53,805 nt of DNA from Sarea resinae. Its lineage: Eukaryota. This document shows, one piece after another, positions 9,178 through 37,834 of this stretch (positions are counted from its first letter, which is position 1; each line of letters opens with the position of its first letter). The position numbers and the translations under genes were made by a program. The DNA is taken from the NCBI GenBank assembly GCA_026026165.1, contig JAPEUD010000075.1, positions 62,001 through 115,805 on the forward strand. Reading direction: 5' to 3'. Under the pieces are notes generated by a model. The model was given only the letters and a program-made list of their open reading frames with translations. It searched no databases and was not told where the DNA came from.

Positions 9178-11333
9178 CTACTCGTCGTCATCATCTTCGT
9201 AGTACTGATGCATTCCACCAGCCCCCGCACCGCCGCCGACGCCGCCGCCGACGCCGCCGCCAAGGGTACCAAACTGGAACAAGCCCGCGCCGCCGCCCGC
9301 GGCCGAATAGCCCGACGCAGAACCCGGAGCCCGAGACCAGGAAGACGAAAAGCCGACTCCGATCTCATCGTCGTCTCCGTCTCCGTCTTCATCTCCGTCT
9401 TCGTCATCATCGTCGTAGAGATTGTTGGTATTGCTGCTACTGCTGTCGGGCAATCCCAACACCAAGCCCATACCGCTCGCTCCGCCGCCGCTCATCCAGC
9501 CGCTGTTGCCCTTGATGGCCCCGACGGGTTTGACGCCGCTGATGTAGCCTGTGCCGTTGATGTCGTGGTCGTTGTAGGCGAGACCGCCCATGCTGTCGGG
9601 GGCGATGGAATCAGAGAAGGTTGCATGACCTGCGTTTCGCAGACCGTGAGCCAGGCCGTCGTCGTCGTCGTAGTCGTCATCGTCGTCGTAGGCGGCGACT
9701 GAGCAAGAGGCCGAGGAGCTGGAGTCGAGGAGGTTGAATTGGCGGCCGCGGGCCTTGGATGGCGTGGTGCTAGTGTTGGCGGTTTTGCCGCTGCTGTTGT
9801 CTTTCTTGGCCTGCGTCTGGGCTTGTCGCTGGGGCTGGCTCCTGGGTTGAGGGTAGCGTGGAAGCGCTCGTGATGTTGATGTGGCCGTCTCGTTGGCATC
9901 GTCTCCGGTTTCGTGGTCGTTCATTGCGATGTCGTCATCGTCGTCGTTCTCGAGGGCCGCGGATGGTCTAGTCTTGGTCGTGGCGTTCGTGATACGACCA
10001 CGGCCGCGACTGCGATCTTCGTCTTCGTGATTCTCATCGTCTTCATCTTCATTATCATCGAGGAGTTCGAGTTTGACGATACCGTTCCCCCTGGGTTTTG
10101 CTTTGGGCTTGGCCTTGGCTAGATTACCGGCCTTTGGCGTCAAACTGGTATTGGCGGGTTTAGTCACCCGGCCGCTTAGGACGCCTTGCGATGTGGAGGC
10201 GGAGGCAGTGTGCTGTCTCTTGCTACTCGCGTTTGCATTTCTGTTGGCGTTTTGATTACTGTTTGAGTGAATACTTGGGGGACTGTTGGTGATGGCAATG
10301 GTGTCAGCGTTGGCGCTACCGTTAGCGCTGCCGTCGGAATTGGCGTTGGCGTTGGCGTTGGAATTAGCGTTGGAATTAGCCCTGGGAGCTAGACCACGCA
10401 GTTGGCGCTGACCAAGGTGAGCTGTTGTTGATGTCGGTGGTAGGGGCGTTGATCGTTTTCGACTCGGAACCGGTAATCTGAAAGTGATGGCGTCTTCATC
10501 TTCCTCGTCTGACGAGATATATGAAAAGGGGATGGGGCTCTTCGGTAGAGCAGCAGCTCCAGATGTTGTCGCTGCCACGGCTCCAGATGTTGTCGCTGCC
10601 ACGGCTCCAGCTCTGCCGGCCTTTTTTCCAGCTGTCGTTCTCCCGGAACCAGCCTTGGCTTTAGCTTTACCAGCACCGCTTCCGCTGCCATTGCCCTTGG
10701 TAGGAGTGCCGCTGCCGTTAGGAGTCACTATGCCGCCACGGGGGGGAGCAGGAGCGCGGATCCCGTTTTCGATCTCAGCGCGTAGCTTGCTGGCTTCTTT
10801 CTTGATGATTCGGAAGCGGCCCTCGATGCTGTCGTAGGTGGCGCCCTCGCCGTACATGCTTGCGATGCGGCGGTAGTCGAGCTGACGGGGAAAAGAAAGT
10901 TAGTGGTGAGGGGTGAGATTGGAGGAAGAAGAGGTCAGGTGGAAAACCGGGCGATGCGCAGAGAACGTAAGTAGAGATAAAAGAGTAGAAAGTTAGAGGA
11001 AAAGGTAGAAAATAAAATAGATAAGAAAGAGAGTATATTCATGACACAAAGTAAACGAGTAGTTCCATTGGCACACCTCACACCAAAAGCTAGACAATGC
11101 GTAGTCTCCCCGGAGTGTGAATATATCACTGGAGGCGAAGGGGAGAACCAGACCGCCACACAGCTCATCAAACAATCAAACCCGCCCACACGACATCGTT
11201 AGTAGAGGTGAGAGATCGAAAGGCCTAGAAGATCGAAAAATAAAGACCAAAATACCTTCATCTCCGGCGCCGCGGCCACAATAGCAGCCAGGAGCCGTGT
11301 GAACGACTCGGTAGATTTCCAGTCGATAGGCAT
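9178..11333 (-). CDS. Cluster gene A: Myb/SANT-like N-terminal domain plus disordered tail, ~593 aa; exons 11333-11256, 10881-9178
   Basis: Spliced N-terminus MPIDWKSTESFTRLLAAIVAAAPEMK|LDYRRIASMYGEGATYDSIEGRFRIIKKEA. The 374-nt intron has GTATTT...CTAAC...CAG signals. Confidence 0.85.
10556..10610. repeat. 24-nt tandem duplication inside gene A (GAVAATTS x2)
   Basis: GCTCCAGATGTTGTCGCTGCCACG x2 plus a partial copy. Confidence 0.9.
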
Positions 11334-13710
11334 GGTTGCTTGCGATGTTTTGTCCGAGCAGATTGGCTCTTTCAGGGGTACAGGGAAGATGTAATAGGTG
11401 CTTCTTGGGTGCTGATGATGATGATGTTGTTATTGATGTTAATGGTGGTGGAGAGGTTGCTTCGCGTGGAGAGTGAGGTCAGGAAAAGTGAGGTGAGGTG
11501 GAATAACGACGAGGCCAGAGGAGAGAGCGAAGGTGAGACGAGGATGCAATGAATGTGGCCCTGTGTGTAGCATCAAGAGCAAGGCGGAAGACGAAAGCGA
11601 GTAAAGCGTGTGAATGATGTGTGTATGATCCGAGGTGTTATGCTCGAAACCCCGATAGCAAGCGGTAATGATCAATCACCGAGTGAGTGTACGAGGTAGG
11701 ATAGGTGCTAACAGAGAACATGATCAGTCTTTCTCATCAGAAATAGTATGCATTCACTTCGAATAAGCCGGCGCCATAAACTTTGACCTCGACATCGATT
11801 GAACAAATCCAACAGATAAGAAAGAATAGGTCAATTACCTCTGACACTTGCTACCGAGCAACACACTCCCACAGAGCACTCGATGCCGTCAATTGTAAGT
11901 GAGAGACTCCTCTAGCTCTTCAGAGCAAAACGTTGACCACAGCAGTCAGTCAAAACAAAGACGATAATAAAATCCCTCGAGTTCAACAGACAAGAACACA
12001 CGCGAACAGGGTGCTTTGCTTTCTTGCGACGAAAAGTACGGACGGACGGACGGTTACAGCAAAACATCAAAAACAGGGGCGTGGGCAGAGGCACAGATAT
12101 AGCACCTCTGTTTCGGTGCGGACGGCGTATGCAAATACGCTCGCATGTGCTCGCGGCATCGTTGGGACAGAGTGGCGGACAGAAAGACAGACAGGTGGGG
12201 GGGAAATAAGGCTTACTGCTGTCCGGGGGCGGGTGGAGGGAGGGAGAGAGAAGGGCAGGGAAGGGGGTTGGCACAGGCAACCGGCATTTGAAGTGAGGGC
12301 ATCAATCTCGATCCAGGGGACGAGGTTCATGTGTGGACCGAAGAAGAGAAGTGTGCAAGCTTGGGCGGATCTGCATATCTCCCTCCCTGCCTCCCTTTTT
12401 TTTTTCCTGTCCGCATCTTCTCCCCTTCAAATGCACGCGTGTCGTGTGCGAATACGTCAGGATGCCGGAAATGCGATCAACAGGGGCGCGTGTGTCCCCT
12501 CTCCTTCTTCTTCGAGCATCAAAGTGGCTTCTGTTAGATAGCCGTCGCACAACCCGGCTGGAGCCCTCTTAGAGAACCAAATAGCTACAATGACACCACC
12601 AGTATCAAGTCTTTTAAAACTACAGACTCAGCCGCGTCGAGTCGAGTCGCGTCCTGTGGTGTCGTGTTGCGCCATGCCATGCCGAATCCGATCACATCTC
12701 CGAAACCCTCAGCTCCGCTCACCGCATCAGCTTGGCCGCTGTCCGGATTGTGATATCTGAGATGTTCTGCCGTCGCGGGCGGGCCGCCGTCGCGTGGACA
12801 ACCATGACAACGACACCGACAATGACATGTCTCATAAGCTACCTACCTTACCTTACGCGGTACATGCGCGATACCGACGGTACTTGAAGGCAGGACAGAC
12901 AGGCTTAACTACGAGTCAAGTCTCCTAGGGGCCACACACCGCACACCGCACACCGCACACCACACCGGTGCACGGTACGAAGTATGTCGTTGGAAATGGA
13001 TGGATCCATCGTCGTTCCTGGCTAAAAGGGGCGCTAATGCGGCTACCAGGTAAGGGGCGTCAGGGCCAAGCCGCGGGCGTGGGCCGGGTACGCGAGAGTA
13101 CGGCCTGGTTGTCGATCTCAAACACCCGATCCACCTGTTATCCACTACTCGAGTATCATCCACCATCATCCGCCGGCGCAACATCGAGGCACGTCGCGGA
13201 GATACCCAGGCAGGCAGAAAGAACCTATTTATCACCCCCACTCGTAGTGTGATCGCGATGCAAGCACTTTAACATTACCTGCAAGCACTTTACGCGTCCT
13301 TGACGTCCGGCCCGGTCTTCATCCAGGGCGGCACCACCCACCAGCCACCTGCACTGACCAAGGTACTTTGTAACATAACATACTCCAGGCACCCAGCTCA
13401 TCATCATCATCATCATCATCATCACCTCACCGGACTCTAGGCAGCCATCGTCCTCAAGGGCCCCACCACACTACTCCTGCTCAACTCGTAGAGTACCTTA
13501 CTCTGCCTAAAGACGTTTTACAGCTCACCGACCTACTCTACTCATAGCACATCCATACACATCCATACACATCCCGTAAGAGTGCCGAGACCGACAACAA
13601 CAGTGACACCGCCAGTCAACGGGAGTGGTTGTCGCCCGAGGATCCAGAACACCGAGTCCCGCTCGCTCAGGGGTATGTATGTACGAGGGTTTTCGTAAAG
13701 TGGTTGCATG

Positions 13711-13757
13711 TGCATGGATGTGTGTGCATGGATGTGTGTGCATGGATGTGTGTGCAT
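13711..13757. repeat. 14-nt minisatellite (TGCATGGATGTGTG) x3.3
   Basis: Read directly from the sequence. Confidence 0.9.
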
Positions 13758-14671
13758 TTGTATCCATGGATACGGAGTAGAGTACGAAGTACATGTGCAG
13801 CAAACATCTGGGGGGGCGGGGGGAGGGGGGGGGGGGCGCTGGTAGATCGGTGCGAATCCCTCATTCTCATCACCTACCTTACCTAAGGTAGTCAACTCAT
13901 CTTATCACCTAGTCAACTCGTCGTATCATTATCCTATCTACCTCCCTACCGTACGCAATCCGCACTCGCACTGCATCAATACAACTCTAGTCCAGTCCAG
14001 TCCATCGTAGAAGACATCAACAGATCCAATCCATCCCTCCATTCATAAACATCTGACGGATCCATCCATCCGACGGAAAAACCAGCATGCCGATCGCCGC
14101 GGTCCGCGAACGTCCTGTTCGACGTTGGGACGTTCGGGGCGCACCGAGGGCCGGCTGCGCGGGCGCGGGGCGGCGGTCATGCCGGGGTACGCATCCATGT
14201 GAGAGGAGATGAGATGAGATGGCTTGTTGGATCGGCAGGTTGTGTGGATGAGGCGGTGATGGCGGTGTGGCGTTGCGCGCGCAGATGAGACGAGGGATTC
14301 ATCGAAGACGGGATTGGGGATGGGGATGCTGGGGTAGTGAGTGTCGTGTAGGCTCTTTGGATGGGGGGCGAGGGGGCGAGGGAGAGGGAGGGAGAGGGTC
14401 AATGATTCTCAAGGCATGTTCAAGTCAGCGGGGCTGTTCATGAGAGTCAACGTCCTAGAAGGGTAATCCCTCATTTCGACTAGGAAAAAAGCTAGCTAGA
14501 GAGTTGACAACCTTGGAGCGTCATCCGTCTCCGTCAGGCTCAATAGAATGTCTGGAAAGAAAACACCCGGCGCGCCGATCAAGCCCAGATCCCCATCCCC
14601 ATGCCCATACCCAATCGCACTATCCGAAAGACTTTGCGTTCACAGCTCGAAAGACGGCCCACCAGCCACGC

Positions 14672-15733
14672 TCAATCGTCGAACTCGCTGTCGTGTCCGC
14701 CGATACCACTGTTTTCTTCTCCGTAGCCGCCGAGATGTCCGTAAACGCCGTCAATGGCCTCGTTCTCCTCATCCTCCTCGGCGTCGAGGGCGGGATCGTA
14801 GGACTCCATCTTGACACGGATGATCTTGGCACGCTTGCTGGGTGTCATGTCGTTGATGCCTACGCCCCCTTCCTCGTCATCCTCGTAATCGTCGCCGAGC
14901 TTGAGCTGGTTACCGTCAGTGCGAGCGAGGCCGTTGCCGACGCCATCGCAGTCGTACGAGGTTGAGGTGCCGGTAGAATCGCGAGCGAACTTGAAGAGAG
15001 AGCCGTTGACACCGAGACCGTCGGACATGAGGTTTCGCGCTTCCCTAAAGGAGACATTGCCAACAGCGCCACCCGCGTATTCGAGCTCGTCCTCTTCATC
15101 CTTGGCCGAGGCTTTACGAGAACGGCCACGAGTGCCTTTGGTGGATGAAGGTGTCTGAACGCCGAAAGGGTCCTCGTCGTCGACAGAGAAACCGTTCGCG
15201 AACTCGTTCTTGACGGCGGAGCCTTCAGTCTTGAAAGACTTGGGCGTGGCAGTTTTCTTGGCTGGCGTCCCCTTTGACGTAGGAGTCTTCAGCAGGCCAT
15301 TGTTGGTGCGCTTGCGGGGAGTCGTAGGAGTAGAGCCCGACGTGCCCTTTCCGACGGAGAAGTTGCCGGCACCGTTGGCTTTGGCGTCCTTGCGGATCTT
15401 GACCAGACGTTCAGTGATGGCACGCGCTGTGGGCGTTTCGCGGTCACTGGCTAGAGGGAAGTTAGTGTATTGCAATATAGAGGGCACTGTGACCTGTCGG
15501 CTTGGGCGGGGTGAAGCGGAATACGCAGATGAGAAAGGCATCGACGAGAAAACAAAATTGATAGGACTTACGCCATGCTACGACGATCTTCTTGGGATCG
15601 ACGCTGATCTCGTGGGTCTCGAGGATTTTTAGAAGGAGCTGTTTGTCCAGTAAGCTTCAAGAGGTCGACACAATATGAGACGAGAGGGGAGACGTACGAT
15701 CTGGTCGACCTCGGGGGTCCACTTCACAGGCAT
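14672..15733 (-). CDS. Cluster gene B: Myb/SANT-like domain plus TP-rich basic/acidic tail, ~293 aa; exons 15733-15698, 15638-15572, 15450-14672
   Basis: MPVKWTPEVDQI|LLLKILETHEISVDPKKIVVAW(P)|SDRETPTARAITERLVKIRK. Canonical GTACGT and GTAAGT donors. Probable 5'UTR intron at 15821-15755. Confidence 0.88.
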
Positions 15734-17752
15734 CTTGAGTATTTCCCAGAGAAGCTGTGGGAAGAGTGAGTATTTGACATGTAGAAGAAGTAAAAGGTCA
15801 AAGGGCAGGGGAGCAACATACCAGGTTCGGATTGAGATGGTACGAGTGAAGGTTGGGTAAGATGAAAAGAACTTGGATAATTTGAGAGAAGTAAGTCCTT
15901 GAGTTGATAGGATCCAAGTGACCTTGAGTAAGTCAAGAGGGGTGAAGAGGGAAAGGAAGTGCAGTGTCAATGTATGTGTGAAGAGTGTGTTAGAGAAGGT
16001 CAGGCAAAGTGAACGGAGGATAGAAGAAACAGAGGCAGAGGTAGAGGCGAAGAGAAGAGAAGAGGCAATGGAAAGAGAGGTAGAGCGTCGGCAGGTCAGC
16101 ATCAATGCTGTGCTTCAATTAGTGTGCAGTGTTCTATGCAAGTGGCAGGATAGGACACTCGATACTAATGCTCCGTTCAGGTCCTCTGCCCGTGGGAGAC
16201 ACTTTGGGAGTGGTGATATCAACGGTGATAAGTTCTTGCACTGAAAGCTCAAGATAAGAAGAATGAAGGCCAATCCGGCATCTAATGCATCTCATGCATG
16301 CGGCAACATCTATCACTTTTGCCTTCTACACATACATTCATGTCCGTGAAAAGAGGATTTGTGCTCAATTGGGGGATCACAGTGACAGCCGGAGGATCAG
16401 GGAGGGGAGGAGAGAGAGGCGGGACTCGACATGGCCGAGCAAGGGCCTGGTCCCGGTACATTCCAAACCCCTGATCGACAGCCGTCATACCCTCGCGTGG
16501 CTAGGGGCAGCCCGCAGGGACGAGGTACCTGCATGTCGCTCGTCCTCCGGTCTCGAGTACCCCCACCACCCACCACCCGCCACAAGTACCCGCCCGTCGC
16601 CCTCACCCCTCTCCTCTCCTCTCCTCTCCTGCGCTTCTCACGACATCTTGTCGACACCATGTACAGACCACGTCCCCTTGCCTGGCACCAGGCTCAAAGC
16701 AGCGCCCCTCAGGAAATGAGAGGAGGCCCAAGATGTGAGCTGTGATCTCGGATTGTGAGCTGTGTGCGTCAAGGCTGCCTGGCGGGCATGACTCACGTAA
16801 ATGCACTCGAGTCTCACAGGAATCCGTTGCTGCAGCATCACTGCAGATCTGTGATTGACTTTGTTCCCCTGATGAGCCCCTGGACCGAGCATCCCAGAGG
16901 ATGGCCATGCTGGTCGGTACTTGGCCGCTACAGACCATCGTCCCGCTTTTCGCGGCGGTCGGCTCCCTCGTACGGATGCCTGCGGCTGATTGCCTTGTAT
17001 CAATGTGCTTGACCAACTACTACTACTCGGACTAGCATCTCCGGAGTGGAAGCTTCACGCACGGCGCTGCACCGCGATAACATGTCGAGTCCTCTCAGGC
17101 AATTCAAGCACGAGGGACCAAGAGGCGTTCATGCTGATGCATCAGGCAGCGAGTACAGGCATATGGCGACGATGTTGGAAAAGTTGGCTCGATGGCATCC
17201 GCATCCGTGCCCATTCAATTGACTCGACTCTTCAAGCCGTATTCACCGAGATCCATTGATGATTCTACTTCTGTACCTCTTGTTCGAATGTTATTCGAAG
17301 AGAGGCCAACTCTCTCGGAACCTGCTGCTCTTGCACTGTGACCACTTCACCACCGGTTGAGGTCTTCATATCTTGCCTCAACCTCTCTCTGTTCTTCTGG
17401 CCGATCTTTCTCTCGTCACTTGTTCCGCTTGTGACCTTGATATCCCTCCTCATACTGCCTCTCCTTTCTACTCTACCCTGCTACGTCTCTGACTCTTCGG
17501 CTTCTTGAAGAGTCGCCTACGTTTTCGTTCTGCTTGCTACCTCTTACTTACAACTTGTCTCCCGATCCTCGAATCGTTTCACTCTAAACACACGTTTTCA
17601 TCTCTTTGATCCCCGCTACCAGTTATCTGAACAGTGGTCAACAGAGGTATTGTCTCTCCCGTTCAGCCCGCCTGGTGTCATATGCCACTCAACTCTCACC
17701 CCACTGCTCACCCCTGTCACACCCAAGCTGACCGTTCATGCCAGATCTAAAG

Positions 17753-18822
17753 ATGCCGAAAGGACAAGCGATCATCCGCTGGGACGCAGCGAATGATGCG
17801 AAGCTGCTAAAGCTCATCTGCAAGCTCCAGGGAAACGACCTTAAGAAAGACGAGATCGCCAAGGCATGGGGTAACGAACCGTTTTCCATTCACTGCAAAC
17901 CTTACATGGCTTTCTTTACGCGTGACTGAAGCTCGCTTCTTTTTTTGATGTTCTTTCTGTCATTCAGCCCCCGCTAATGAGAGCAATACGCACAGGTCCC
18001 GACGTACCAACCTTTTGCATCTCCAAGCGTATCAACAAACTCAAAAAAGAAGACGCCAACGGCACAGCCGGCACTCCGGTCAAGTCGACCACGACCACGA
18101 ACAGCAACGGCAAGCGCGCGGCGAAGCCAGCCAAAGGAGCCGCAACCTCACGTACGAAGAAAGCCAAAAAGGAAGTGACCGATGAAGCCGAAAGCTCCGA
18201 TGGCGAAGATGACGTTGCCATGGCCTACAAACAAGAGGTCAAAGACGAAGATGGCTCTGGCGACGACCCTGAAGCCAACCCACTCAACGAGCTCATCGCC
18301 GCCGTAGGAGCCGCCAAGGCCACCAACCTCGGCATCGACGACGACGAGGACGACTACGATGAGGACTTTGCCCCGCGCACCCCGACGACCAAGAAGTCCA
18401 CCCCATCCAACACCACCCCATCCGGCCTCATCACGCCGCCGACGCTGACTCGGAAAGCGAAAGCGAGCGCGACTAGCGGTCGTCAGTTCACGCCGAGCCA
18501 CGCCAAGGCGAAGGCCCAGCCAAAGGCTCAACAACCCAAGCCGGTCGCTTTGACCAAACGCTCCTCGCCCCGCTCGGTCAAGAAGATCGACTACAAGCAG
18601 GCCTACGTGGACCTGGATGCCAGTGACGACTACGATGACTGCGATGACTTCGACGACGAGGTTCCGGAGAACAAGCTCGCTGGTTCCGGTTCCGGTTCCG
18701 GTCTTTGTCTCGGCGAGGAGATGGTCTCTGAGACCTCTGACGGGGCCGACGATGATTCTGACGCCTATGTCGAGGCGGACGACGACGTCGACGTCGAGGA
18801 CGACATGATGATGAGGGTTTAG
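17753..18822 (+). CDS. Cluster gene C: Myb/SANT-like domain plus disordered tail, ~314 aa; exons 17753-17870, 17996-18822
   Basis: MPKGQAIIRWDAANDAKLLKLICKLQGNDLKKDEIAKAW(G)|PDVPTFCISKRINKLKK. Intron GTAACG...GCTAAT...CAG. Probable 5'UTR intron at 17647-17744. Confidence 0.85.
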
Positions 18823-19422: not shown

Positions 19423-19520
19423 TGCTCTTCTTCTATTTGCTTCTTCTTCTATTTGCTTCTTCTTCTACTTGCTTCTTCTTCTACTTGCTTCTTCTTCTAC
19501 TTGCTTCTTCTGCTACTTAC
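19423..19520. repeat. 16-nt minisatellite (TTGCTTCTTCTTCTAY), about 6 copies
   Basis: Read directly from the sequence. Confidence 0.85.

Positions 19521-19747: not shown

Positions 19748-19750
<3 letters not shown>

Positions 19751-19805
<55 letters not shown>
19751..19805. repeat. (TC)n microsatellite
   Basis: About 27 perfect TC units. Confidence 0.95.
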
Positions 19806-19808
<3 letters not shown>

Positions 19809-26074: not shown

Positions 26075-26872
26075 ATGGCATCTTCCGGCCCTCAGCAGCC
26101 GAGCATGCAAGATGGTCAATTCATGTTGTCCGTCATCCGAAACATGAAGAATAAACCTGATGTAAGTTGTATGTTCCTTTCGATTCGCTTTCGGATTTTT
26201 TGGCGGGTGTTCTGTTCAGTTCAGCGGCGTGTCACAGGGGGGGGTAGCCCTCGGTTCGGGAAGTACGAACACTCCCCGAGAAAGCTCAGCTTGACCACGG
26301 ATGTCTTTCAAAACTTCAAATCCTGTTATTCCATGCAATAAGGCTTTATTAAAAATACTGATTCAAGTCACCCATCGAACATCCTATGAGAGAGTCATTG
26401 TGTTATATGGAGGTGCTGATATCAGTCAATTTAGATCGACTTTGAAGCCGTTGCGAACGAGCTTGGCTACAAAAACGGGTCCACAGCCTCTGTTCGCTTT
26501 GGGCAGATCAAGAGAAAGCTTGGCTATGATAAGACGGCCGAGGGTTCCACCGCCGCATCTGCGAAATCTGGTATCTCCAGCAGCCCTAGCGGTTCTCCCT
26601 CAAAGGTGGTCAAGCCACGTAAACCCGTTACTCCCCGCAAACCTCGTGGGAAGAAGGCCATCGAAGCGTGCGAGCAAGCTCTCCGTGAGAACCAGAACCA
26701 AGCTATGGAGGATACCAACACTAAGCAGGAAATCAACGGTATGTCTCCACCCGTTCTCTTCCTGCAAATGCTGCGCTAAGACTTTCCAAAAGATAGCGAT
26801 GGTCTGGATGCGATGAAAAGCGAGATGAAATATGAAGATGACGTTTCCTTTGAGGACATCGAGACCGAGTAG
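26075..26872 (+). CDS. Cluster gene F: Myb-like domain (F-type), ~156 aa; exons 26075-26161, 26435-26738, 26793-26872
   Basis: ...QDGQFMLSVIRNMKNKPD|IDFEAVANELGYKNGSTASVRFGQIKRKLG, ending in acidic ...MKYEDDVSFEDIETE*. Probable 5'UTR intron at 25987-26073. Confidence 0.82.
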
Positions 26873-27356
26873 CTTTGATTTCGTACTTGGTGGAAGGTCA
26901 GCGATTCCGCATAGCAGTGAAGCTGGGTGTCTACTACGTCTTTTCGCGATGGGGTTCGGTCATGGATATGACAGGAATAGGTGTTTGGCTTGTATGGAAG
27001 GATAGCCAAGTCCTGTCCAGATCACTCAAGATAGGGCCATTATTTCTAAAAAAAGGAGCCATTATACCCACCTCGCTACGCTGCCACCGTGAATTCCTGT
27101 CTGGTTGATTCACAATGACCATTTTGGTTTGCCGAAACCCTCACTATTTATCAATCACTTGCTTTCGCTGTATCAATCCTTGCCATTCTCCAGCAACCTC
27201 TCTCTATCGAAATCCCACTCCATGTACATGACTGCTTTCTTCTGCAATACGACCGTCTAAAGCAAGATCTCAAGGGTTTGTTTTCTTCCTTGGCTGCTCC
27301 TGTCAGAAGCTAATTAACAAGAAGGCTAGCAACCATCGGCATTTCGGCTGATCCAC

Positions 27357-27912
27357 ATGGCTAGCATCGCCGAGCTCAGCGAACAGGTGGCCGAATTAAA
27401 AAGAAAGATCTACGAGCAAGAGAAAGATATAAGGTTCATGGACTTATGTCTGAGGTACATCAGCTTCGAGGTAAGTCCCATCTGACCCGGAATGGTTGGG
27501 TTCCAAAAGACCAACTCCTGTAACTTCCTTGCACGTAGTCCTGACTGGGAAATAGATTGGCCTTGACGAAGCCGCTCGAGAGATATCTCAATGGGCTGGG
27601 GACTCGCGAGAGTGGGGCTTTGCGTTTGAGACATTACCAGCACTTCGGATTCATGTCCGTAGCCAATTTGCCAAGGAGCACAACGAGCAGTGTATGGCCG
27701 CTTTCCTACAGCAGCTTCAAGATGCCGAGATTCTGTCACCCGACGATATCGAGGTTCTCAAGGAGGACTTTAAAAAAATGTTGGATGGAGCAGAGTCTTT
27801 GCGTCTAGATTCTAGCGATGAGGAGGTGCTTTTCGGACCGGCAGAGGCCACCAATCGCTTGTCCGACACTGCCGGTGAAACTGTAGAGGAGAGATCTTTG
27901 ACATCAGACTAA
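27357..27912 (+). CDS. Cluster gene G: small protein, probably a degenerate Myb-like paralog with an N-terminal coiled coil, ~156 aa; exons 27357-27470, 27556-27912
   Basis: MASIAELSEQVAELKRKIYEQEKDIRFMDLCLRYISFE|IGLDEAAREISQW... The intron GTAAGT...CCTGAC...TAG joins in frame to ORF 27694..27912. Confidence 0.6.
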
Positions 27913-28799
27913 CGGAGTGGGGGATACTACCTCAGCGAAGTTTGGTAGGGTAGAGAGTCACTACTGGTATGATTGGATATTATTGAGAGAAATAGTGGTA
28001 TAAAGGGGAATACTGAATAACAGAAAGCAAATCAGCAAGCTGCCTAAGCATCCCTCTTGCTCTTACGGATCACATTCTGCCTTTATATCTTCCGCTATAC
28101 TGCATCAAGCAACTTTATTGAAGAAAGCCCACGAGTCTACCAAGTAATCTGGTACAAGAAGGGGCCAATAATGTGCAGTCAATTTGTTCCTTTACTCTCA
28201 TATATCATGAACCTATACCCCCTTTTTACAACATGTCCCCCCAGCAGCTTATTGAATGAGAGGACGCAACCGCAGAAGCTTGACACAAGTTCTACCCCTT
28301 TTCCCAACCATAAAGACTCCGGGTCTAACTTATAGATGTCGTCCGGTCACTCTCGCTGACTCGTCGCTGACTCGTCCTCGCTGGCTCGCCGAGACATCCT
28401 CTCCGTTTTGCCCTAGGGCTTAGAAGGCACCCGTTTTGGCATTGAGCGTCACGATCTTCCCACGATGTCATGAATTCATCGACACACACAAGCGCAACGA
28501 TTCTCTCACTTCCTCTAGCCTAAATATCTAGTTGCTAGAATCTCTTCGGCTACTCGATCTTCTTCAACCTCCACCTCTACACACTATCCCACAACTATCT
28601 CACCACAACGCTTCCACCATCATTCTTCCTCCACCATATTTCCTCCACAAATCTCTCTCTTCATGATCCATAGCTCCGTCTATCAAGTTGTTTTCACATC
28701 AACTTCGAAAGCTAGCATCTCTACCGCGTACGTTCATGGGTGGTCCCTGACAGGTTTCTATGTACCATGCCTTGCTAACTTCGATCTCTAGACGCTAAG

Positions 28800-29753
28800 A
28801 TGTCCGACGTTTCTCTAACAAAGTCGGATGTCCGCCTCCTGCTGGCAGTGGTTAAGAACATCAATGGCGATGTAAGCTTAGCTGGCTTTCTTGATCTAGC
28901 TTTCGCGCCTATGTCCTCTCTTCTCATTAATCTTTCCTTTACCTCTTCAATTGATGTCAATTCCCTTCTTGCATGAAGCCTTTCATTATTGCTGAACGGC
29001 TTTGTCACTTCCACATCATGTACCACATCACGATTTGATCATATCACTGGTTCCGAAGAGATAATGTCTTTATCGTTTGAACGAGCAAGGTTTTTATCTC
29101 GATCTAGCAGCTAACGGATCTCACTGCCAAGATTGATTTCGATAAGGTTGCCACCCAGGTGCCTTACAAAGATGCCAAAAATGCTCGTGCCATGTGGGGC
29201 CGCCTGAAGAAGAAAATTACCAAGGAGGATGACCCGGAGGGGCCCGTCGGAGACTCAGGTGTTGGCAAAGATGACGGCAAGAAGGTCACCGGAACTCGTA
29301 AGAGGAAGGCGGACGCTGCCAACAATGAGGGCAACGACGCTGGGCCGGCAAAAGTAAGAAAAGTCTTTTTTATCAGCGCATGATGCTGATCTTAATTAGA
29401 AGTTATGTGCTCCGCGCCAGACTTCCACTCGGGCCTTGGAAGCCGCGACACCAGTTGATCCGACCATGAAGGTTCTTCACGACAACTTTTTTGACACAGT
29501 AAGTCTAGTCTAGCAAAGATGATTGAGAGATGACTGATGACATAAACAGGCTGGCAAGACTGGCATCAAGGAGGACACCCCAGTCCGCGACACTGGTTTC
29601 CACCGCGGTTTCCCTCAACAATCTGTGGAGCACCATGCCCTTGGCGGTCAGGATCTCGACGGCGAGGCTCTTCCTGGCGCGACTCAGCACTTTCAGAGCT
29701 TCGAAGGGAAAGAACGCAAATTCCTATTCCCAAACCTCCTCGATGAGGAGTAA
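28800..29753 (+). CDS. Cluster gene H: Myb-like domain (F-type), ~198 aa; exons 28800-28871, 29132-29353, 29400-29498, 29550-29753
   Basis: MSDVSLTKSDVRLLLAVVKNINGD|IDFDKVATQVPYKDAKNARAMWGRLKKKI. All four exons join in frame at canonical sites. Probable 5'UTR intron at 28728-28791. The 3' exons are less certain. Confidence 0.8.
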
Positions 29754-30510
29754 TTTTACCAGGATAGGTTTTTACAAAGCCTTATCAAACCATCTTTTCC
29801 ACTGGATTCAAAGGGTATGGGCAGGGCGTCTTGTTTTGAGGATTCTCCTGTCGCAAGCTAGTCAACGAGATAGAGATATTAGGCTTAGTCTCAATCAATG
29901 CTGTTGATTTGTCTAGTAATAACGTCGTAAACAATGAAGTCTGAATCTTGTCTGAGGGAGCTTGATGCTATACTTCGTCTCTACGATACTTGCAATGACT
30001 AGAAATTTCCATTTGCAGCCTCAAGGTGATGCTACGGCAGCATTTATCCGTGATTATTGAGCCCTGCATTTAAGAAGGTATGATATATGCACGCTTCCAC
30101 CCTCACCCTAGCTCTTTCAAGCCTCCATATGCACCTATTCCAAGCCCTTATGCAGCCACCACATGCGCGAACCTCTCTTGATCATATCCTTTGATGCAGT
30201 CCGCAGCACGTTCAGGGTTCATCATCTCTCAATATGCAGTTGCACGTTTGACTGGCAAGCCGCACCCAAACCTCTTCTCGACTTGTCCTGACACTTTCAC
30301 TGCCGTGATAATACCTGCGCAGTCGCACAATTCTATATCTGGCGACAACACCCACCGCGCTCATATACAGCTTGCTGTCTCACTTCACAACATCAGAAGA
30401 CTTCTCCCGTATCTGCCAGTGGCAAAGCTGTCTTCTCCAAACCATCCACCGGCTTCACTCTTCTCCGTCAACGCTTTTCACCAATCAATCAGTCAACCAC
30501 TACCTTCACC

Positions 30511-31278
30511 ATGCCTCCAGCAAGTAACGAAGAACAGTTCAAGTTCTTGATCAGCTGTATCCGCTACTCCAACAATGGCAAAGTGAGGCTCCAAACAGGA
30601 TGCCCATCGGCTTTCACTGAGAAGTATCGTGACAGGTTGATTTCGGCGAAGTGGCCAAGGAATGTAGCATCGTCACCAAAGGCGCAGCGTACGACGTCCC
30701 GTCTCCCCCTCATCTTGATTTTCGGCTCGATCGAGCCTCTAAGGCGATCACTAATTCTAAAATCTCTCCATAGTGCCAAACGCTATGAGCGGATGATGAA
30801 AGCCCATGGGATTTCTCCGGCCGGCCCCACCCCTCGCTCCACCCCGATGCCTTCTACTCCCACAAAGAAAACTCCCGGTTCAAGCAGCAAGAAGCGCAAG
30901 CTCGGCAAGTTCGACAAGATGTCCAACAGCAGCAACGATGATGAAGAAGGAACGCCCACCGGAGTAAAGGACGAGGCTGATTGTATGGGTATCAAAGAGG
31001 AACAGAAACAAGAAGCAGACGATGAGGATGTCTACACTGAAGGCCCACTTTCATTCTTCCCCAACTCCGTCTCTGGTGGGGACGACAACGCCGACGAGCA
31101 TCGCTTTGCTAGTCATGAGCAAAATACCTTCTCGGACCTCATCCAGCTGGGAGGCTATGGCGCAGGCTCCGGCGATTCAGGCATCGTTTCTCGCGAGATG
31201 GACAGCGACCACGGGTATCAGCGTCATGGTTCAGAGGAGCCGGACGGAAGCCCAGATAGCATTGTCATTGGCGATTGA
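30511..31278 (+). CDS. Cluster gene I: Myb-like domain (F-type), ~209 aa; exons 30511-30582, 30636-30688, 30774-31278
   Basis: MPPASNEEQFKFLISCIRYSNNGK|VDFGEVAKECSIVTKGA(A)|AKRYERMMKAHGI, with two canonical introns. Confidence 0.9.
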   Translation: MPPASNEEQFKFLISCIRYSNNGKVRLQTGCPSAFTEKYRDRLISAKWPRNVASSPKAQRTTSRLPLILIFGSIEPLRRSLILKSLHSAKRYERMMKAHGISPAGPTPRSTPMPSTPTKKTPGSSSKKRKLGKFDKMSNSSNDDEEGTPTGVKDEADCMGIKEEQKQEADDEDVYTEGPLSFFPNSVSGGDDNADEHRFASHEQNTFSDLIQLGGYGAGSGDSGIVSREMDSDHGYQRHGSEEPDGSPDSIVIGD

Positions 31279-33071
31279 AATGGGTCGTGTTGCTGCGATA
31301 GACATGTTATCGAGAAGCTTTGGGGCGCTTTTTGATCAAGGGTCGAGGATTTTCCTTTCTCGTTGATCTTCCATAGGTATCGATGGCTGGGATTGGAGTG
31401 CAACTATTAGAGCCTATCGGCTCATTTTCGTTTGCTTTTTCTCTCTTGAGATGATTTGTGCCCTTCACCTACTGAATCCTCGGCGAAATTCACGAAGCCA
31501 GGACGATGCTTCTCCTCTCACCTCCTCTAATACGCCTACATTCTCGTGGCTGTTAACACTTCGCATGCAAGTCCACTACCTTGAAAGTTGTCCAATAGCA
31601 AGCACGCCTATCGCAGCACCGCCATCCCCATTCCTGATAGCTGTGCACCAGTCTCCCCATGCTTTTACGTCTTTACCACCGAGTCGCATTCATGGATGTG
31701 TGCGACTAGATATGGATCCATGCAGGTGCCCGTGTAGGATGGCTGAAGATTAGATGTGCAGGACTGACGTTCCCCCACGTCTCGCCTCGCGTATCCATGC
31801 GTTGTGATCTACGTGCCTCGATCTCGGGGTCCACCGGGGAATCCGTGGCGAGCGGAAGCGAGGCCGGGAGCGGGAAGGGAGCGGGAATTCGGACGGGGGT
31901 GTTCTTCTTAGCGTGGCGATCCCTTTTCCACCCTGGCTCGCTTTTCCGATGGTACCTCCTGCAGCTCGCCTTCTCTGGGACTCGGGGCGGAGAGGAGAAG
32001 CCACATTGCTGCTGCTGCTTACTACGTAGACTCTTCCCATTGCCTACCTTCTACCGGGCTTACCGTATCTATATGTGCCTCCTGCATGGGCGGTGAACCG
32101 CTATCGACGAGCTCAATACCTGGGAGCTTGGCCGTGGCAACGATAACGGTAACGGTAACGGTAACCTTAATCCCCCTGGTCCCGGCGCAATCAAACAAAG
32201 ACCCCTCCCCTTTTGGTGTGTATTCGTCTACACAGTCTGGTGAAGGGAGATCATATCTCATATTTCTGAATCGAAAAGAGACATGGGCATCTAGAATTGC
32301 CACTAGGATATAGACGTTGGATAGAATGCTGTGCGCATCGTTTACTGGTCTTGTGATTTTGGCTGCTTGATGCCTGAGGCAAGAAGGAGATGGCACAAGG
32401 AAGGAGCGAGAGGCACCTGATGCGTCTCTGCTTTTGGTTGATGTCATATCTTTTTAACACGGTGGATGATGGCTTTGGTCGAACTCAAGTGAAGCTCAAC
32501 ACTAAAAAAGCGGATTCGGACTGGCACCGATCCTTCAGAGCCTCCTTATCATCCTGTGACTAGGCTGCTCTGGTCTGAATAACGCCCTATTACTTTCCAG
32601 CGGCTTGCCCGTGGCCTCTTTATTACTCGGCCTACTTACCACATCATCTGCGTGGTGCTCATCCCCATCCTGCCATGCTACGTTCCCGATCATAAGCTTC
32701 ACTCTAGTTCGCCGATGATCTACGGCTGATCATCTACCTGGCCTTTCCCTTACCTACCTCTTACTCTACGAGGTGTGACAGGTGGACTTGTCAACTCCTC
32801 AAACCCCTCGGCTCTGCACATTCAATCAAACTCTTCCACATACATCACCCTCTCACTTAGCACATCTCTGCTTCCTTCCTTCAGGTTCCTGAGTTCTGCT
32901 CCGTTGCCTCAAGACTGCCCTCACCTCTTCAACATCAAATCACACCCTTCGATCGATCTCGACCGAACAGTTTGAAGCTTGATAAGAGCTAGCTTCAAGC
33001 TTACTTGAAAGTCATTACTCGTTATCCTAAGCTCACTCCACCGCCGTCTTCCAGCAAAGTGATACTCTATC

Positions 33072-34248
33072 ATGGCTGGAGTCAAGAAGATGAACTGGGA
33101 CGGTAAGTGATCATTTCATCCCGACTCTCGACTTCTTCCATAGTCGGCAGCGTTCTACAGTACTCGGATGCTCTAACTGTTCTCTATTTGCTTCTATGCC
33201 TTCTGATGTTGGTGTCTGTTATCGTTCTTCGATTCATGTTGGTTGTGCGCATTTCTTCAATTTTGTTCACTTCCACCCTTCAAATGGCTCTCATCTCATC
33301 CTACGCACGTCTTGCAAGTCACATCTTACAATTCCCAGACATCAATCTGCTCGGTTATTTAATTCACCAATTCTACTCCTAAACTTTTTTCCGAAATTTG
33401 TATCTCTCGCAATATCAAAACTAAGAATCTTTCTTATAGCTACCGCCGACCAACAGCTCCTTCTCACCATTATCGGAACTCAATCGGTCAAAGTCGACAA
33501 TGAGGCCGTTGCTGCCCAGCTCGGTTGCACCCCCCGCTCTGTCGTCGAGCGCTTGAAGAAGCTTCGCAAGCAAGCCCGTGATGAAGGCTTCAATCTCAAC
33601 GGCGACGCTCCCTCGCCCAACGGCACTGACACTTCGGCCCCTGTGACACCCCAGAAGGGTCGTGCCAAAGCCAAGGCAACTCCCAAGAAAACCGCCGCCG
33701 GCACTAAAGGCAAGCCCAAGACCGAGCCTGGTAATACCGACGACGAGGACTTTGGCGGCGACGATGACAACGAAGTTGAGGCTCAGCCCCTTCCCAAGAA
33801 ACGCAAGACTGTGGCAGGCAAGACACCGCGCAAGGGAATCGCTGTCAAAAAGACTCCTGCTAAGCCGAAGCCGATCACTGGAGCCACCAAGCCCAGGACC
33901 AAGAAAGCAAGCGGAAAGAAGGGTCAAGCCAGCCTTTCAGCTGAGGCCGTTGAGCATTCGTCCGAGGAGGAAGGCGAGGTCAATGCCAGTGGCGATGAGA
34001 AGGGCAACGGCGGAATGCAAGGCACTGGCGCCGGCAACAAGCGAAGCCACGACGAGTCCCAGGAACACGGCGCTGTGGAGGCGACTGAGGAAGTCAAGGA
34101 AGAGGTCAACGAAGAGTTGGCTCCTACCGTCCACGGCGGCGAGGAGACTGGAACCGATGGCATCAAGGAGGCCGAGGACCAGGACCACGACTTGGAAATC
34201 CCTACCCCTGTGAAGAAGACAGAGAGCGATGAGGAGTACGTCCAGTAA
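33072..34248 (+). CDS. Cluster gene J: Myb/SANT-like domain plus TPxK-rich tail, ~279 aa; exons 33072-33102, 33440-34248
   Basis: MAGVKKMNWD(A)|TADQQLLLTIIGTQSVKVDNEAVAAQLGCTPRSVVERLKKLRK. The 337-nt intron is GTAAGT...CTAAG...TAG. Confidence 0.87.
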
Positions 34249-36049
34249 GTTTTCTTACAAGACTGCGACCTGCATCCAAGCTTTGGTATCGAATTCGTCG
34301 CGGATGAGGGCCTTTCGTTGAGAAGCGCAGGAGAAATCACGGGCGGATAGGCATAGGTGGTGGAAATGGCAAGGCGTGGTGATTCTTTCCGAGCTCTCAT
34401 TTCGTCCTCCATGGATTTTGATAGTGCACGTAACGCGGATGGATAGTAAACCCGGAAGTTGGCTTGATATAGTTAATGATCAAGTGGATTCTCCTACATA
34501 GTCGTTGTGCCTGTAAGAACAAGTTTGCGTGAGGTGCGAGTCTCGAACTGCAGTCCCACATTACCCCCCTTTCCACTTAACCCTTCGCCAAGTTCCCAGA
34601 CCTGTAGATCACCTCGGTAGATCTGGTCATCACATATGATTTCAATCGATGCGAAGTCTATAGTGTATGTCAAGTATTCAAATCTACTGCATTTCGACTA
34701 TCTCCTGTTCACTGAAAAAAGTACCGTACGAAGAAACGCTAAGGAAATTCGGATGATATAGAAACGGCCGAAACAGCGGCTTTGTCTCAGCCACCTTGGT
34801 GGAAGATCTAGACGCCCTGACCGCCTTACCTTGCAGTATACAAAAAGGCGGGTACGGATTTCGACGCCCGGACATCTCTATGTCTTCAAGATCTCAGGTA
34901 TCATGATGGGAGGGTTGTGGAGGCGGGCAAAACAAGGTCCTGCGGATGGGCCTTCAATGCCCTCAACAGAGTCACGATATCATCATCTTCACAGTAGCTA
35001 GCGAGCAAGAACTCATTGGGAAACGACGCATTGAATTGTAGGGACTGTTGCTTGAGAGAAAGAGATTGTATTGTGGATTGGGACCCCAATGGTCAATTCT
35101 GTTTCAGGCCTACTGAATCTCCACGCCTCGAGGGTCCGCAAAACGAGGTATGCATCGGTAGGTAGCTAGCCATGGAGTCAATTCATCCCACAACCTCCCA
35201 ATCAATGCACGACGTCCACCTCAGATCCTTTCCGTCCTCAATTCACCTCGCATGCCGTCAATACGTCAGTAGCCCTAACCCCACACGCACGTGTGTACAC
35301 ACGCGCGTTCGTGAGATTGCTCTTCACACCTTACCCGGAGTGTCATTCCCTCTGGTACCTGATGTGAAATTGATGCAGTGAATGGATGCAGTAAACAACA
35401 TTGGCAAAAGCATCCTCTTGCTATCGACTACTTCAAACCCTCACCCTCATCCTCAATTCCATCTTTCCACACACACATACACACGCAGACTCAATGACAG
35501 TTTACTTTGTGAACTGAACGACCCGCCAAGATCTTAATCCATCTTGAAACCGTCACTGATATCTTCATTCGCACCGATTTGAGCCTCTTTTCAAAAGAAT
35601 CGCTCGGTTTTTCTTTTCTTCGCATCTCCAGGACGCTCCAGATCATCTCCGATCATCTGGTATTCCAACTCAACATCAAGGTGAGCTCATCTCCTCCTCA
35701 GATCAGGCCTCGTCCATCGGAGCTTCCGAGCTTCGGCTGCTGTCCAGCAGAGCTTCAATCGAAGCTTACGGTCTGTAAGTCTTGAACTCCGTATGTTAAG
35801 CCGTCATCCGATCACCAGTGTACTCTCTTGGTCCCACGATTCAGGGGATTCTTCCGCAGAAACAGACTGCAATCAGGTACGATCATCCTTCCCATTATCG
35901 TCAGGTTCGAATCGCTAGAACTTCACCCCTGTCTCTTGATTGGATGAATGCTTCTGCGATTTGGCCATCGGGAAGATGTATCGGCTGATCTTATCTGCGT
36001 TTTATAGAACAAATTCTTGAATAATTAGCTTCGAAGCTGGTTGTTCGCA

Positions 36050-37834
36050 ATGGCGCCTCGCAAGAGCGTTAAGTCTGAGCCCAAGCGCTACCTTGTTCGC
36101 TGGACCGGTAAGTGATCGAATGCTAGTGATTGTAAGCTCTGGGATGAGCGATAAGCAGGCACCGGAGCGATACAGCCTTCATCGGAGGTAATCCGTGACC
36201 GGTCCTCCTTCCGCCTTGGATCCTCCCCTGAGGCCGTATCTCATCCCGGATCGCAATCACAAAGAGAGTAATTAGATGGAAACAGGCTGACAAGTAGAGC
36301 AGAGGACATGGACAATAAGTTGCTGCTGAGTATCCAGGCAGCTTGCAATGACGAAGGGGTTAAGCTCCCGTGGGATAAGATTGCCTCGTTCGTCGACGAA
36401 AATATCTCCGAAGGGGCTGTTATACAGCATCTTTCCAAGCTTCGTCAGAGAATGGTCGAACAGGGCCTATCTGTCCCTCAAGCCCTCAAACGCGGTGGGG
36501 CTGCTACCCGTCGTGCAAGTTCTGCTCGTGGTACTGGCACTCTTCCCTCCCAGGGAGCTACCACCACGCGTAGGGCTTCTGCTGCTGGGAGGCTCGAGGC
36601 AAACAAGAAAGCTGCAGGGGCAGGTACAAACGGTGATACGGGGGATGACGACCAGTACGAGTCTGACGAACAGGACGAAGGCTCGGATTACGGGTCCAGT
36701 CAAGCCAAGCGTAGTAAGAAGAAGCTCAACGAAAACAATCTTCCTGGCGGCGAGGTACCTAAACCTCCCAAGCGTGTCAAAGCCGAGGACTCATCTGAGG
36801 ATGAGAAGCCGATTTACAAGAAGCGCAAGGCCGTTCCGGCTCGCAAGGGTTATCAATTTAAGAAGCCTCCCGTGCCAAATAGGAGCCGCCGGTTGAGCAC
36901 AGTTCCCGCCAGTTCATCCGAAACCATGAACGAGCCGAGCGCCTCGGAAGCTTTTGATGGAGGCCAGAATGTTGACGAGGATCAAGACACTGAGGTGCAG
37001 CCTTCTGATCTGGATGAAGGCCAAACAAACGAGGACAAAGACACAGAGGTGGAGCTTTCTGATGCCGAATCTCAGTTTGAGGGCGAGTCTGCCGAGCAGA
37101 TTGACGACGATGCCGAGCAGGGCGAAGAACCTAAGCCAAGTAAGGTAGTTGTGCTACGCATAAGCAAGGAACACCGTTCTGATCGGTATCCTCTGGGTCT
37201 CGGACATTGGCCAGACACTAGTTTAACGAACCATTCGTCGGCTGGACAGGTGGAGGAATCGGACCAGTCCTCAGCAGACAGAACTGTGTCGGAGGGGAAC
37301 CAGCCGCAACCTCTTAGTATGGCCCCCTTGCAGCCGCAATTTGATATTTCGCACAACACCGTTCCTCTTCTTGAGGCACAAGCTCAGAGTCTTAGCGATG
37401 AGGAGTTTGCGAGGAATTTCGCGGCTAGTGCTGCGACAGGTTTCAACGACTGGGACTTCCCTGGGCTCCCCTCTTACCCGCAGCAACCGGGGGTCGGTCC
37501 ATTCTCTGAGGCCACTCATGATCAGAGTTCCTTCTACCCACAGCAGCCAATCATCGATCCTTTTTTCAACCCAACATATGGTCAGAGTTTTGGGGATATG
37601 CTCTCGATGGAGCTCCCTTCGCATTACATGTCGACGCCTGCAACTGCCGGCCCGCCAGATAATTCTTACTTGACATCTAACGATGCGGCTCAGTCCGGAC
37701 CGGATGCGGCTGCCCTTGACAATGAAATCATCAATGACCCATCTGAAAATGCCGAGGTCGGTATGTCGTTGGACTTTGAAGGTGAACCGGGCGGCTGGGA
37801 CCCGCAGTGGGACGAATTCATTAATTATCCGTAG
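36050..37834 (+). CDS. Cluster gene K: Myb/SANT-like domain, long acidic tail and an activation-domain-like C-terminus, ~529 aa; exons 36050-36107, 36303-37834
   Basis: MAPRKSVKSEPKRYLVRWT(E)|DMDNKLLLSIQAACNDEGVKLPWDKIASFVDENISEGAVIQHLSKLRQRM. The 195-nt intron is GTAAGT...GCTGAC...CAG. Probable 5'UTR intron at 35877-36007. Confidence 0.88.

Follow-up and report, generated by a model that had tools for sequence, protein, structure and literature searches.

A nested array of two Myb-like gene subtypes in Sarea resinae and the conservation of its core order in other fungi

Why should a run of related fungal genes be sorted by subtype, with genes of one kind lying on either side of a block of the other? 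The question is raised by a 53,805-nucleotide stretch of contig JAPEUD010000075.1 from Sarea resinae (assembly GCA_026026165.1, positions 62,001 to 115,805 of the forward strand), a member of the class Sareomycetes within the Pezizomycotina. We refer to this whole stretch as the window. Between its positions 9178 and 37834 lie eleven spliced genes, here named A to K, of which ten (A-F and H-K) are related and one, G, is an orphan. We consider it probable that the ten form an old array of paralogues of a single Myb-like family, duplicated in place and divided into two clades, whose core order has been kept and whose products would be nuclear DNA- or chromatin-binding regulators. The W-types (A, B, C, D, J and K) would have kept the first Myb tryptophan, and the F-types (E, F, H and I) would be without the N-terminal segment to which it belongs. 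The eleven genes are as follows.

Gene A, 9178-11333, minus strand: W-type; exons 11333-11256 and 10881-9178; 593 residues; motif IDWKS at the N-terminus.
Gene B, 14672-15733, minus strand: W-type; exons 15733-15698, 15638-15572 and 15450-14672; 293 residues; motif VKWTP.
Gene C, 17753-18822, plus strand: W-type; exons 17753-17870 and 17996-18822; 314 residues; motif IRWDA; divergent from B.
Gene D, 20363-21431, minus strand: W-type; exons 21431-21399, 21262-21190 and 21003-20363; 248 residues; motif VNWNE.
Gene E, 24008-24838, plus strand: F-type; exons 24008-24073 and 24140-24838; 254 residues; the most conserved member.
Gene F, 26075-26872, plus strand: F-type; exons 26075-26161, 26435-26738 and 26793-26872; 156 residues.
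Gene G, 27357-27912, plus strand: not a family member; exons 27357-27470 and 27556-27912; 156 residues; inside the F-type block and co-oriented with it.
Gene H, 28800-29753, plus strand: F-type; exons 28800-28871, 29132-29353, 29400-29498 and 29550-29753; 198 residues.
Gene I, 30511-31278, plus strand: F-type; exons 30511-30582, 30636-30688 and 30774-31278; 209 residues; the second most conserved member.
Gene J, 33072-34248, plus strand: W-type; exons 33072-33102 and 33440-34248; 279 residues; MNWDA after splicing.
Gene K, 36050-37834, plus strand: W-type; exons 36050-36107 and 36303-37834; 529 residues; VRWTE after splicing.

Genes A, B and D are thus read from the minus strand, C and everything from E to K from the plus strand. 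The exon borders of these models were set by coordinates from a three-frame reading; all eleven models are open and every intron is of the GT..AG form, in a window that is eukaryotic and fungal in character, with short introns. Gene E encodes a protein identical to M1819_006502 [Sarea resinae] of NCBI (both 254 residues) and gene J corresponds to M1819_006507 (both 279 residues). The NCBI numbering leaves exactly four genes between these two, matching our models. Beyond A-K, a tblastn search with more than 60 domain peptides found no family member in the window.

The division into two subtypes is real. A 76-row alignment of the window genes and their orthologues has W in the tryptophan column of all 28 W-type rows and a gap there in all 48 F-type rows. 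When 76 domains, ten of them from Sarea and the other 66 spliced from related loci, were placed in an unrooted maximum-likelihood tree (52 columns), one starred branch with support of 98/91 separated the 28 W rows from the 48 F rows. When the tryptophan-bearing columns were removed, the split kept a Shimodaira-Hasegawa-like approximate likelihood ratio (SH-aLRT) value of 88 in a quick search on the 42 columns that follow the tryptophan. The trees do not include the partial rows L031_F_3437m and L072_F_3620m, and ten weak, short or stop-containing peptides had been dropped before alignment.

A preliminary description of the locus had set the W-type genes apart by their tryptophan motifs, and these motifs are present where it placed them. 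IDWKS, VKWTP, IRWDA and VNWNE stand in continuous frames in A to D; MNWDA in J and VRWTE in K are confirmed as well, but appear only after splicing of a phase-1 intron that lies two residues past the tryptophan. For K, an alternative acceptor 3 nt upstream would turn VRWTE into VRWTA. The same description had grouped E, F, G, H and I as one contiguous, co-oriented block without the tryptophan (24008-31278); this much is correct, but G does not belong to the family. Its further mark of the F-types, the sequence I/V-D-W/F in helix 2, proved not to be specific to them: A and D read L-D-Y, the J orthologues I/V-D-F, and K L-P-W, and the aspartate of this column is found in 19/28 W-type and 46/48 F-type rows. 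The succession of a hydrophobic residue, Asp and an aromatic where helix 2 begins characterises the family as a whole and is not a mark of the F-types.

The alignment also shows how the F-types relate to the W-types. E, F, H and I are without the tryptophan because the short N-terminal segment that carries it is missing. At the next conserved hydrophobic position, leucine occupies 28/28 W-type rows and phenylalanine 38/48 F-type rows; the phenylalanine from which the F-types took their name is the homologue of the invariant leucine of the W-types. The second aromatic position is W, F or Y in most rows, and the third is mostly L, F or Y.

Ordered duplication had been suggested for the whole array, and here the two subtypes part company. 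The F-types form one clade, occupy a contiguous block and include the adjacent genes F and H as sisters (84/87), all of which fits a single origin followed by local multiplication between D and J. Under random order the chance that four F-type genes would be contiguous among ten is 7/210, or 0.033; tandem duplication alone would likewise give contiguous F-type genes. For the W-types this pattern is not seen: without constraint, the tree places J beside A, B and C and not beside its neighbour K. A J+K clade was not rejected by the approximately unbiased (AU) test (p-AU 0.082), the group having been named after the tree was seen. Ordered duplication in situ is supported for the F block only. We therefore propose that the F-types may have arisen once and multiplied in place between D and J, and a single origin with local multiplication would give the nested picture of W-types on either side of an F-type core.

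Most genes of the array can be followed individually into other lineages. For groups uniting Sarea with these lineages, support was 97/88 for E, 97/97 for I, 98/91 for H, 98/92 for B, 99/98 for A, 95/85 for C and 99/90 for K (five rows), each of these seven being starred across taxa; D reached 85/64 and F 45/0, and J formed an unresolved grade. The Sarea C gene sits on a long branch in the tree. Orthologues of A were found in loci L007, L048 and L050 (the sampling of loci is given below), of C in L007, and of F in L001, L025, L037 and L063; those of B, in L007, L018, L033, L048 and L074, agree with the Sarea gene in the position of both introns.

Within an orthogroup the introns stay in place, and some positions recur between genes. 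A phase-0 intron just before helix 2 is present in E, F, H and I and also in A, where it is the single intron (374 nt) and immediately precedes the helix; I has a second intron, of phase 2. B and D have in common one phase-0 and one phase-1 intron, C shares the phase-1 intron, and J and K have their common phase-1 intron two residues after the tryptophan.

If the array is old, its order should be recognizable elsewhere. Metagenome contigs scanned with the E alignment yielded 80 loci in 50 near-identical groups, 17 of them of at least 12 kb, and 23 representative loci (given L-numbers) were examined by tblastn and a splice-aware aligner to 10 kb on either side, so that the counts of W- and F-type genes per locus are lower bounds. 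Gene order in other taxa is not random: the arrangement D(-) / E F H I / J K is kept in metagenome contigs and in named genomes. Further family genes were seen in 15/23 loci and E only in 8, two of which also hold weak fragments. In all ten loci that have gene I, it is found downstream of E and is read from the same strand. Among these ten, F and/or H stand between E and I in six, J and/or K follow I in seven (in the remaining three, the locus ends or nothing is seen in the roughly 5 kb past I), and none has an intact W-type gene between E and I. An orthologue of D is found upstream of E on the opposite strand, head-to-head, in L007, L033 and L037; L018 has a W-type gene head-to-head with E, and weak traces of one were seen in L048 and L065. 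In Sarea itself, D and E are divergently transcribed from a spacer of 2.6 kb. Four lineages besides Sarea have W genes flanking the F block on both sides.

L007: A(-) C(-) B(+) D(-), then E F I, then K.
L033: B(+) D(-), then E F H I, then J.
L037: D(-), then E F I, then K.
L050: A(+) and a gap, then E H I, then J K.

Genes A, B and C vary in order and orientation between lineages, although B and C persist as a head-to-head pair in Sarea, L007 and L048. Microsynteny thus holds for D / E F H I / J K and fails for A, B and C, in orientation, and in the Onygenales, which retain E and K with the array dispersed. L063 and L067 have E followed by F only. Locus L048 was considered as a case of a W gene inside the F block and rejected, the K-like pieces being decayed exon fragments. 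At L048:14778-15230 (plus strand) there are three tandem decayed copies of a K-type exon (helices 2-3 and a proline-rich stretch) in three frames and with stops; this one lineage has a pseudogenised remnant within its F block.

Named genomes extend the comparison, on the presumption that locus tags run along contigs. The E and J genes of Dirinaria (Lecanoromycetes), Q9191_003243 and Q9191_003241 respectively, are separated by two locus tags; in Pycnora (Candelariomycetes) E (M1827_003497) and K (M1827_003489) share a contig at a distance of eight tags. Xylographa, Squamulea and Chrysothrix (Arthoniomycetes) have gene models in which J and K are fused. As to the origin of the metagenome loci, the nearest named E protein is that of Thermoascus (Eurotiales) for L018 and of Pleopsidium for L001 and L033, and it belongs to the Lecanoromycetes for part of L007, L016, L037, L041, L048 and L050. 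The order is kept across Sareomycetes, Lecanoromycetes, Candelariomycetes and a Eurotiales-like lineage, which points to a constraint. We suggest that the layout may go back to an ancestor shared by several classes of Pezizomycotina, and that since then the core D(-) / E F H I / J K would have held in order and orientation, A, B and C would have been inverted and shuffled, and the array would have dispersed in some lineages such as the Onygenales.

The ten domains align in register over three helices. A W-type profile built from exon pieces matched the E-orthologue profile with an hhalign probability of 85.9% (E 5.2e-6, 47 columns), and by these profile comparisons the two types are homologous. 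A profile of 120 E orthologues in turn found F at 1e-9, I at 8e-8 and H at 3e-3. The nearest curated family is PF22980 (Myb_DNA-bind_8), whose gathering cut-off is 27 bits. E is a clear member (54.8 bits, E 5.9e-15), and exon 2 of F alone stands at the cut-off with 27.1 bits; exon 2 of H (17.9 bits) and exon 3 of I (11.8 bits), which were scanned as partial exons, fall below it, as does J (14.3-15.2 bits). A, B, C and D, scanned as exon pieces, and exon 2 of K, which holds helices 1-3, gave no Pfam match. Among 75 J/K-type relatives, 24 match PF22980 at E <= 0.1 (best 6.4e-8) and two match the canonical Myb family PF00249 (best E 0.0041), to which no piece of the window gave a match. As judged from such scores, the F-types belong to PF22980 by the curated rule, and the W-types are fringe relatives and not members. 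The F-type domain is hence already a curated Pfam family and the W-type branch is without a family model of its own, and the array is undescribed in the literature found; our search met no publication on the PF22980 family or on the gene array.

The family is nonetheless widespread. A word-indexed protein search with E returned 345 homologues, with PF22980 in all 120 of those listed, and 23 E orthologues share 31 invariant columns; yet in the databases the E homologues go by no more specific names than 'hypothetical' or 'Myb-like DNA-binding domain-containing'. An Atlas search with the divergent E of L063 returned only 'Ascomycota, PF22980'. Word-indexed searches with the J and K domains gave one and six proteins, respectively, the index requiring exact five-residue words. 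An exhaustive search with the W profile gave 978 representative clusters at E <= 1e-3 and 239 at <= 1e-10; by BLAST label, the best 150 of the 978 include 108 of K-type and 36 of J-type. W-types reach the Pezizomycetes (Ascodesmis) and were also found in Phlyctema and Venturia, which we take to be members of the Leotiomycetes and Dothideomycetes, respectively. Two A-type proteins, P0130 and P0132, from Phlyctema vagabunda and a relative, have a normal N-terminal domain followed by about seven tandem repeats of helix 2-helix 3 whose '...G.DP' linker is conserved; here half a domain has expanded into a series of repeats.

What might these proteins do? The ten members have an N-terminal three-helix Myb-like domain of about 55 residues, then a long disordered tail that is first basic and then acidic. 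The tails consist of 42-62% S/T/P/G/A/N, carry K/R patches and psi-K-x-E motifs, and have a net charge of -1 to -11 over the last 25 residues; they can be described as Lys/Ser/Thr/Pro-rich with motifs resembling nuclear localisation signals and the consensus for the small ubiquitin-like modifier (SUMO). In E orthologues (tail columns 500-527), psi-K-x-E(P) is repeated and there is a conserved V-K-x-E-P end, followed by Trp and acidic residues. The V-K-x-E-P of the E tail looks like a SUMO-consensus site kept across classes. The C-terminus of K is acidic and aromatic both in Sarea and in the K orthologues. A, with 593 residues, is more than twice as long as most paralogues, and its tail (9178-10857) has long low-complexity runs, with Asn-Ala and Asn-Ser repeats, Asp runs and a Gly-Val-Gly stretch.

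In the AlphaFold model of J, the domain has a predicted local distance difference test (pLDDT) score of 90-98, with helices at 11-24, 31-38 and 42-58, and the remainder is disordered. Helix 3 is basic in both types, with conserved R and K/R in columns 77, 80, 82 and 83. From the Arg/Lys-rich third helix and the Pfam name, the proteins are most likely nuclear DNA- or chromatin-binding regulators with the basic third helix as the recognising element, and this is the mode of action that we propose for the family. Fold searches with J returned weak rows, mostly helix-turn-helix DNA-binding domains; no Myb or SANT chain was among the rows listed, an absence that proves nothing. The E model gave no Foldseek match in the PDB, and VIA reached Z <= 3.3 with a very large root-mean-square deviation (rmsd). 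Sequence searches of the PDB gave a best E of 0.28 with the W profile and no match with the E profile. Two pointers concern Atg29: the Pfam family ATG29_N (Atg29 N-terminal domain) matched exon 1 of C at E 0.23, and the Atg29 chain of 5jhf matched the J model with Z 3.7 and rmsd 3.5 over 52 residues, at the top of the PDB search by VIA and at rank 3 of the wide search. These are probably due to chance, the row being tied with many others.

Partner pairing between the W- and F-types had also been proposed. A complex prediction for E(1-60) with J(1-65), a single pair, was graded 'weak support', with a score of 0.35 against 0.01 for the best of three controls; three runs agree in at least 75% of contacts, and the pLDDT of the partner is 63 or higher. 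The mark was reached by 51/78 solved complexes and 2/108 mismatched pairs and, in a eukaryotic calibration, by 39/65 solved pairs without a like older complex and 2/126 unrelated pairs. Scores of 0.60 or less include only 5/78 solved complexes and all four passing mismatches (of 180), so that a pass as low as this is more likely to be false than true, except for a pair that was likely from the outset. The folding program made no use of alignments, and the prediction cannot tell which family member binds. Against pairing, W and F numbers are unmatched and vary between lineages, with six W and four F in Sarea, one W and two F within the contig of L016, and no W and four F within 20 kb in L025 (lower bounds as above), which does not suggest fixed one-to-one pairs.

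It is tempting to speculate that the W- and F-types form heteromers through their N-terminal three-helix domains and that the array is kept so that partners are made together, with D/E and B/C as units. The predicted E x J contact would agree with this, as would the divergent placement of D next to the adjoining E in Sarea, L007, L033 and L037, of another W-type in the same position in L018, and of B and C as divergent neighbours in Sarea, L007 and L048. However, the E x J pass is weak and does not identify the binding member, the counts differ (E, I and K in L016; E, I and J in L041; four F-types and no W seen in L025), Onygenales keep E and K without adjacency, the B/C pair is W-W and not W-F, and no common promoter word rises above background. 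We regard such pairing as improbable. We give similarly little credence to the idea that the domain serves as an adaptor or SANT-like module for the binding of histone tails or of other proteins, that the tails act as chaperones or scaffolds, and that the genes encode chromatin cofactors and not sequence-specific regulators. In its favour, each protein contains only one repeat, with no second one to contact DNA, the tails are long and acidic-ended with psi-K-x-E motifs, PF00249 is matched by so few of the relatives, a chain from a protein complex (Atg29 of 5jhf) appears among the tied VIA rows for J, and the E x J prediction would be a contact of domain with domain. Against it, histone-binding SANT domains tend to be acidic in helix 3, and in both types here helix 3 is basic. 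The weak fold matches are mostly DNA-binding helix-turn-helix domains, and the sole matching curated family is named DNA-binding, although a name is no test.

A different doubt concerns the order itself, which may be uninformative: a neutral leftover in a slowly rearranging region, with the subtype split merely the deepest fork of an ordinary family. It is well established that close paralogues adjoin through tandem duplication alone. Ufd1 and a CD2BP2-like gene, which lie in the left flank of the array, remain linked to E in L025 and L031, neither conserved non-coding sequence nor a common promoter word was found by the searches described below, and the Onygenales disperse the array without losing the genes. 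Conversely, according to the abstract of PMC3219968, comparisons between fungi generally reveal either no synteny or microsynteny over at most five genes, and filamentous ascomycetes randomise the order and orientation of genes within chromosomes. Set against that background, six or seven genes in kept order and orientation across classes suggest constraint, while the adjoining A, B and C invert. We hold the purely neutral account to be rather unlikely. At the other extreme stands a constrained regulatory complex, in which mixed W-F complexes, assembled through the N-terminal three-helix domains, would act on chromatin, the head-to-head pairs D/E and B/C would be co-expressed, and selection on shared regulation would have held D / E F H I / J K since before the leotiomyceta classes diverged. 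If true, this would be a fungal counterpart of the order-constrained homeobox-type clusters, in a subphylum otherwise known for scrambled order; for the present we consider it very improbable. Taken together, the nested pattern is real and old and is mainly the footprint of duplication history, and an old array of duplicated DNA- or chromatin-binding regulators with a preserved core is the reading that we favor.

A number of observations weigh against that reading. On gene order, three F-types lie upstream of E in L031 and L072 and are read from the opposite strand, a B-type gene comes right after E in L074, E and K are 23 locus tags apart in Uncinocarpus, and the tags are far apart in Emmonsia and Trichophyton. 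The linkage of Ufd1 and the CD2BP2-like gene to E in two distant loci belongs here as well, since it means that some of the order conservation may reflect a generally quiet region. On the phylogeny, a tree of 52 columns is short and flags the meeting of long branches, including the join of the I group and W-type rows; being unrooted, it does not say which type is ancestral. Internal branching among the W-types is weak, with J a grade and the AU value for J+K as given above, and the F orthogroup is as poorly supported as already listed. On structure, the E model is poor (domain pLDDT 60-75) and the fold matches of J are weak (Foldseek best E 0.58, VIA Z <= 4.2); with no significant fold match, the Myb assignment rests on the sequence pattern and one Pfam family. 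The weak-support result for E x J hints that the domains may also touch each other. Lastly, our searches found no experimental record for any family member.

In L025:1-2227 (Ufd1 and CD2BP2-like) and L031:19027-20099 (Ufd1), the left-flank orthologues lie within 10 kb of E, and in L031 Ufd1 is on the other side of it. Its presence near E in two divergent lineages indicates that the linkage of Ufd1 to the array is old and that the orientation is not. The flanks of the array in Sarea are ordinary housekeeping genes, namely Ufd1-like, HSP60-like and NOP2-like genes, recognized by eye from translations of open reading frames (ORFs), and a protein kinase identified by Pfam. Several spacers within the array (11334-14671, 15734-17752, 21432-24007, 31279-33071 and 34249-36049) measure 1.8-3.3 kb, which is long for a fungus; seven ORFs in the spacers had no Pfam match. 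Comparison of all 12 intergenic spacers with the 23 representative loci by blastn (word size 9) gave no match at 1e-3. No shared promoter word stood out: over the 600 bp upstream of each of the ten genes, counts of 7-, 8- and 9-mers were no higher than in 200 random sets from the window.

The status of G within the F block deserves separate comment. Its candidacy as an F-type member was rejected: there is no Pfam match, and the E-orthologue profile gives E 0.13 with a negative score. Likewise, tblastn found no counterpart in the 80 related loci at 1e-2 or in the 23 representative loci at 0.05, and an Atlas search gave no usable match. G is an acidic protein of 156 residues with a coiled-coil-like start and without a basic tail. 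It looks like a lineage-restricted insertion or a new gene inside the block.

The genes J and K illustrate a practical point. Public gene models often fuse J with K (P0128, P0129 and P0190; P0122-P0124, P0126 and P0127 also concern misannotation of J or K), and other public models of K begin at the second exon, whereby the tryptophan-bearing first exon is lost. Short first exons before introns of 57-337 nt, as in J and K, are unreliably annotated in public models. Many W-type gene models are mis-annotated, either without their first exon or run together with the gene next to them, and orthogroup profiles would improve fungal annotation. More broadly, the family is widespread and E is almost invariant, yet every database name is 'hypothetical' or as general as those cited above. 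Orthologues in Aspergillus, where genetics and binding assays are routine, make the family directly testable.

How, then, does the array compare with known systems? The closest is PF22980 itself, of which E is a clear member and F stands at the cut-off by one exon, with H, I and J matching below it; the W-types differ in keeping the N-terminal tryptophan segment, and the Pfam entry is silent on the gene array. Canonical Myb/SANT domains (PF00249) are defined by regularly spaced conserved aromatics, one per helix. The domains here resemble them in three predicted helices of about 14, 8 and 17 residues with a basic helix 3, in the W-type tryptophan that opens helix 1 and precedes an acidic residue and Leu-Leu, and in a second aromatic at the start of helix 2 in most members. 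The third conserved aromatic, however, is here aliphatic or Phe, and canonical Myb spacing would be slightly shorter. The head-to-head D/E and B/C pairs, kept in several lineages, recall the divergent H2A-H2B and H3-H4 histone gene pairs, although the helix lengths of J do not fit the geometry of the histone fold and the weak predicted pairing is for E x J. Hox clusters offer a further analogy. They differ in their fold family, and the Sarea array, which breaks up in some lineages, has given no evidence of colinear expression or shared enhancers; the likeness lies in paralogues of a small helix-turn-helix family that stand in one orientation and keep their order over long distances.

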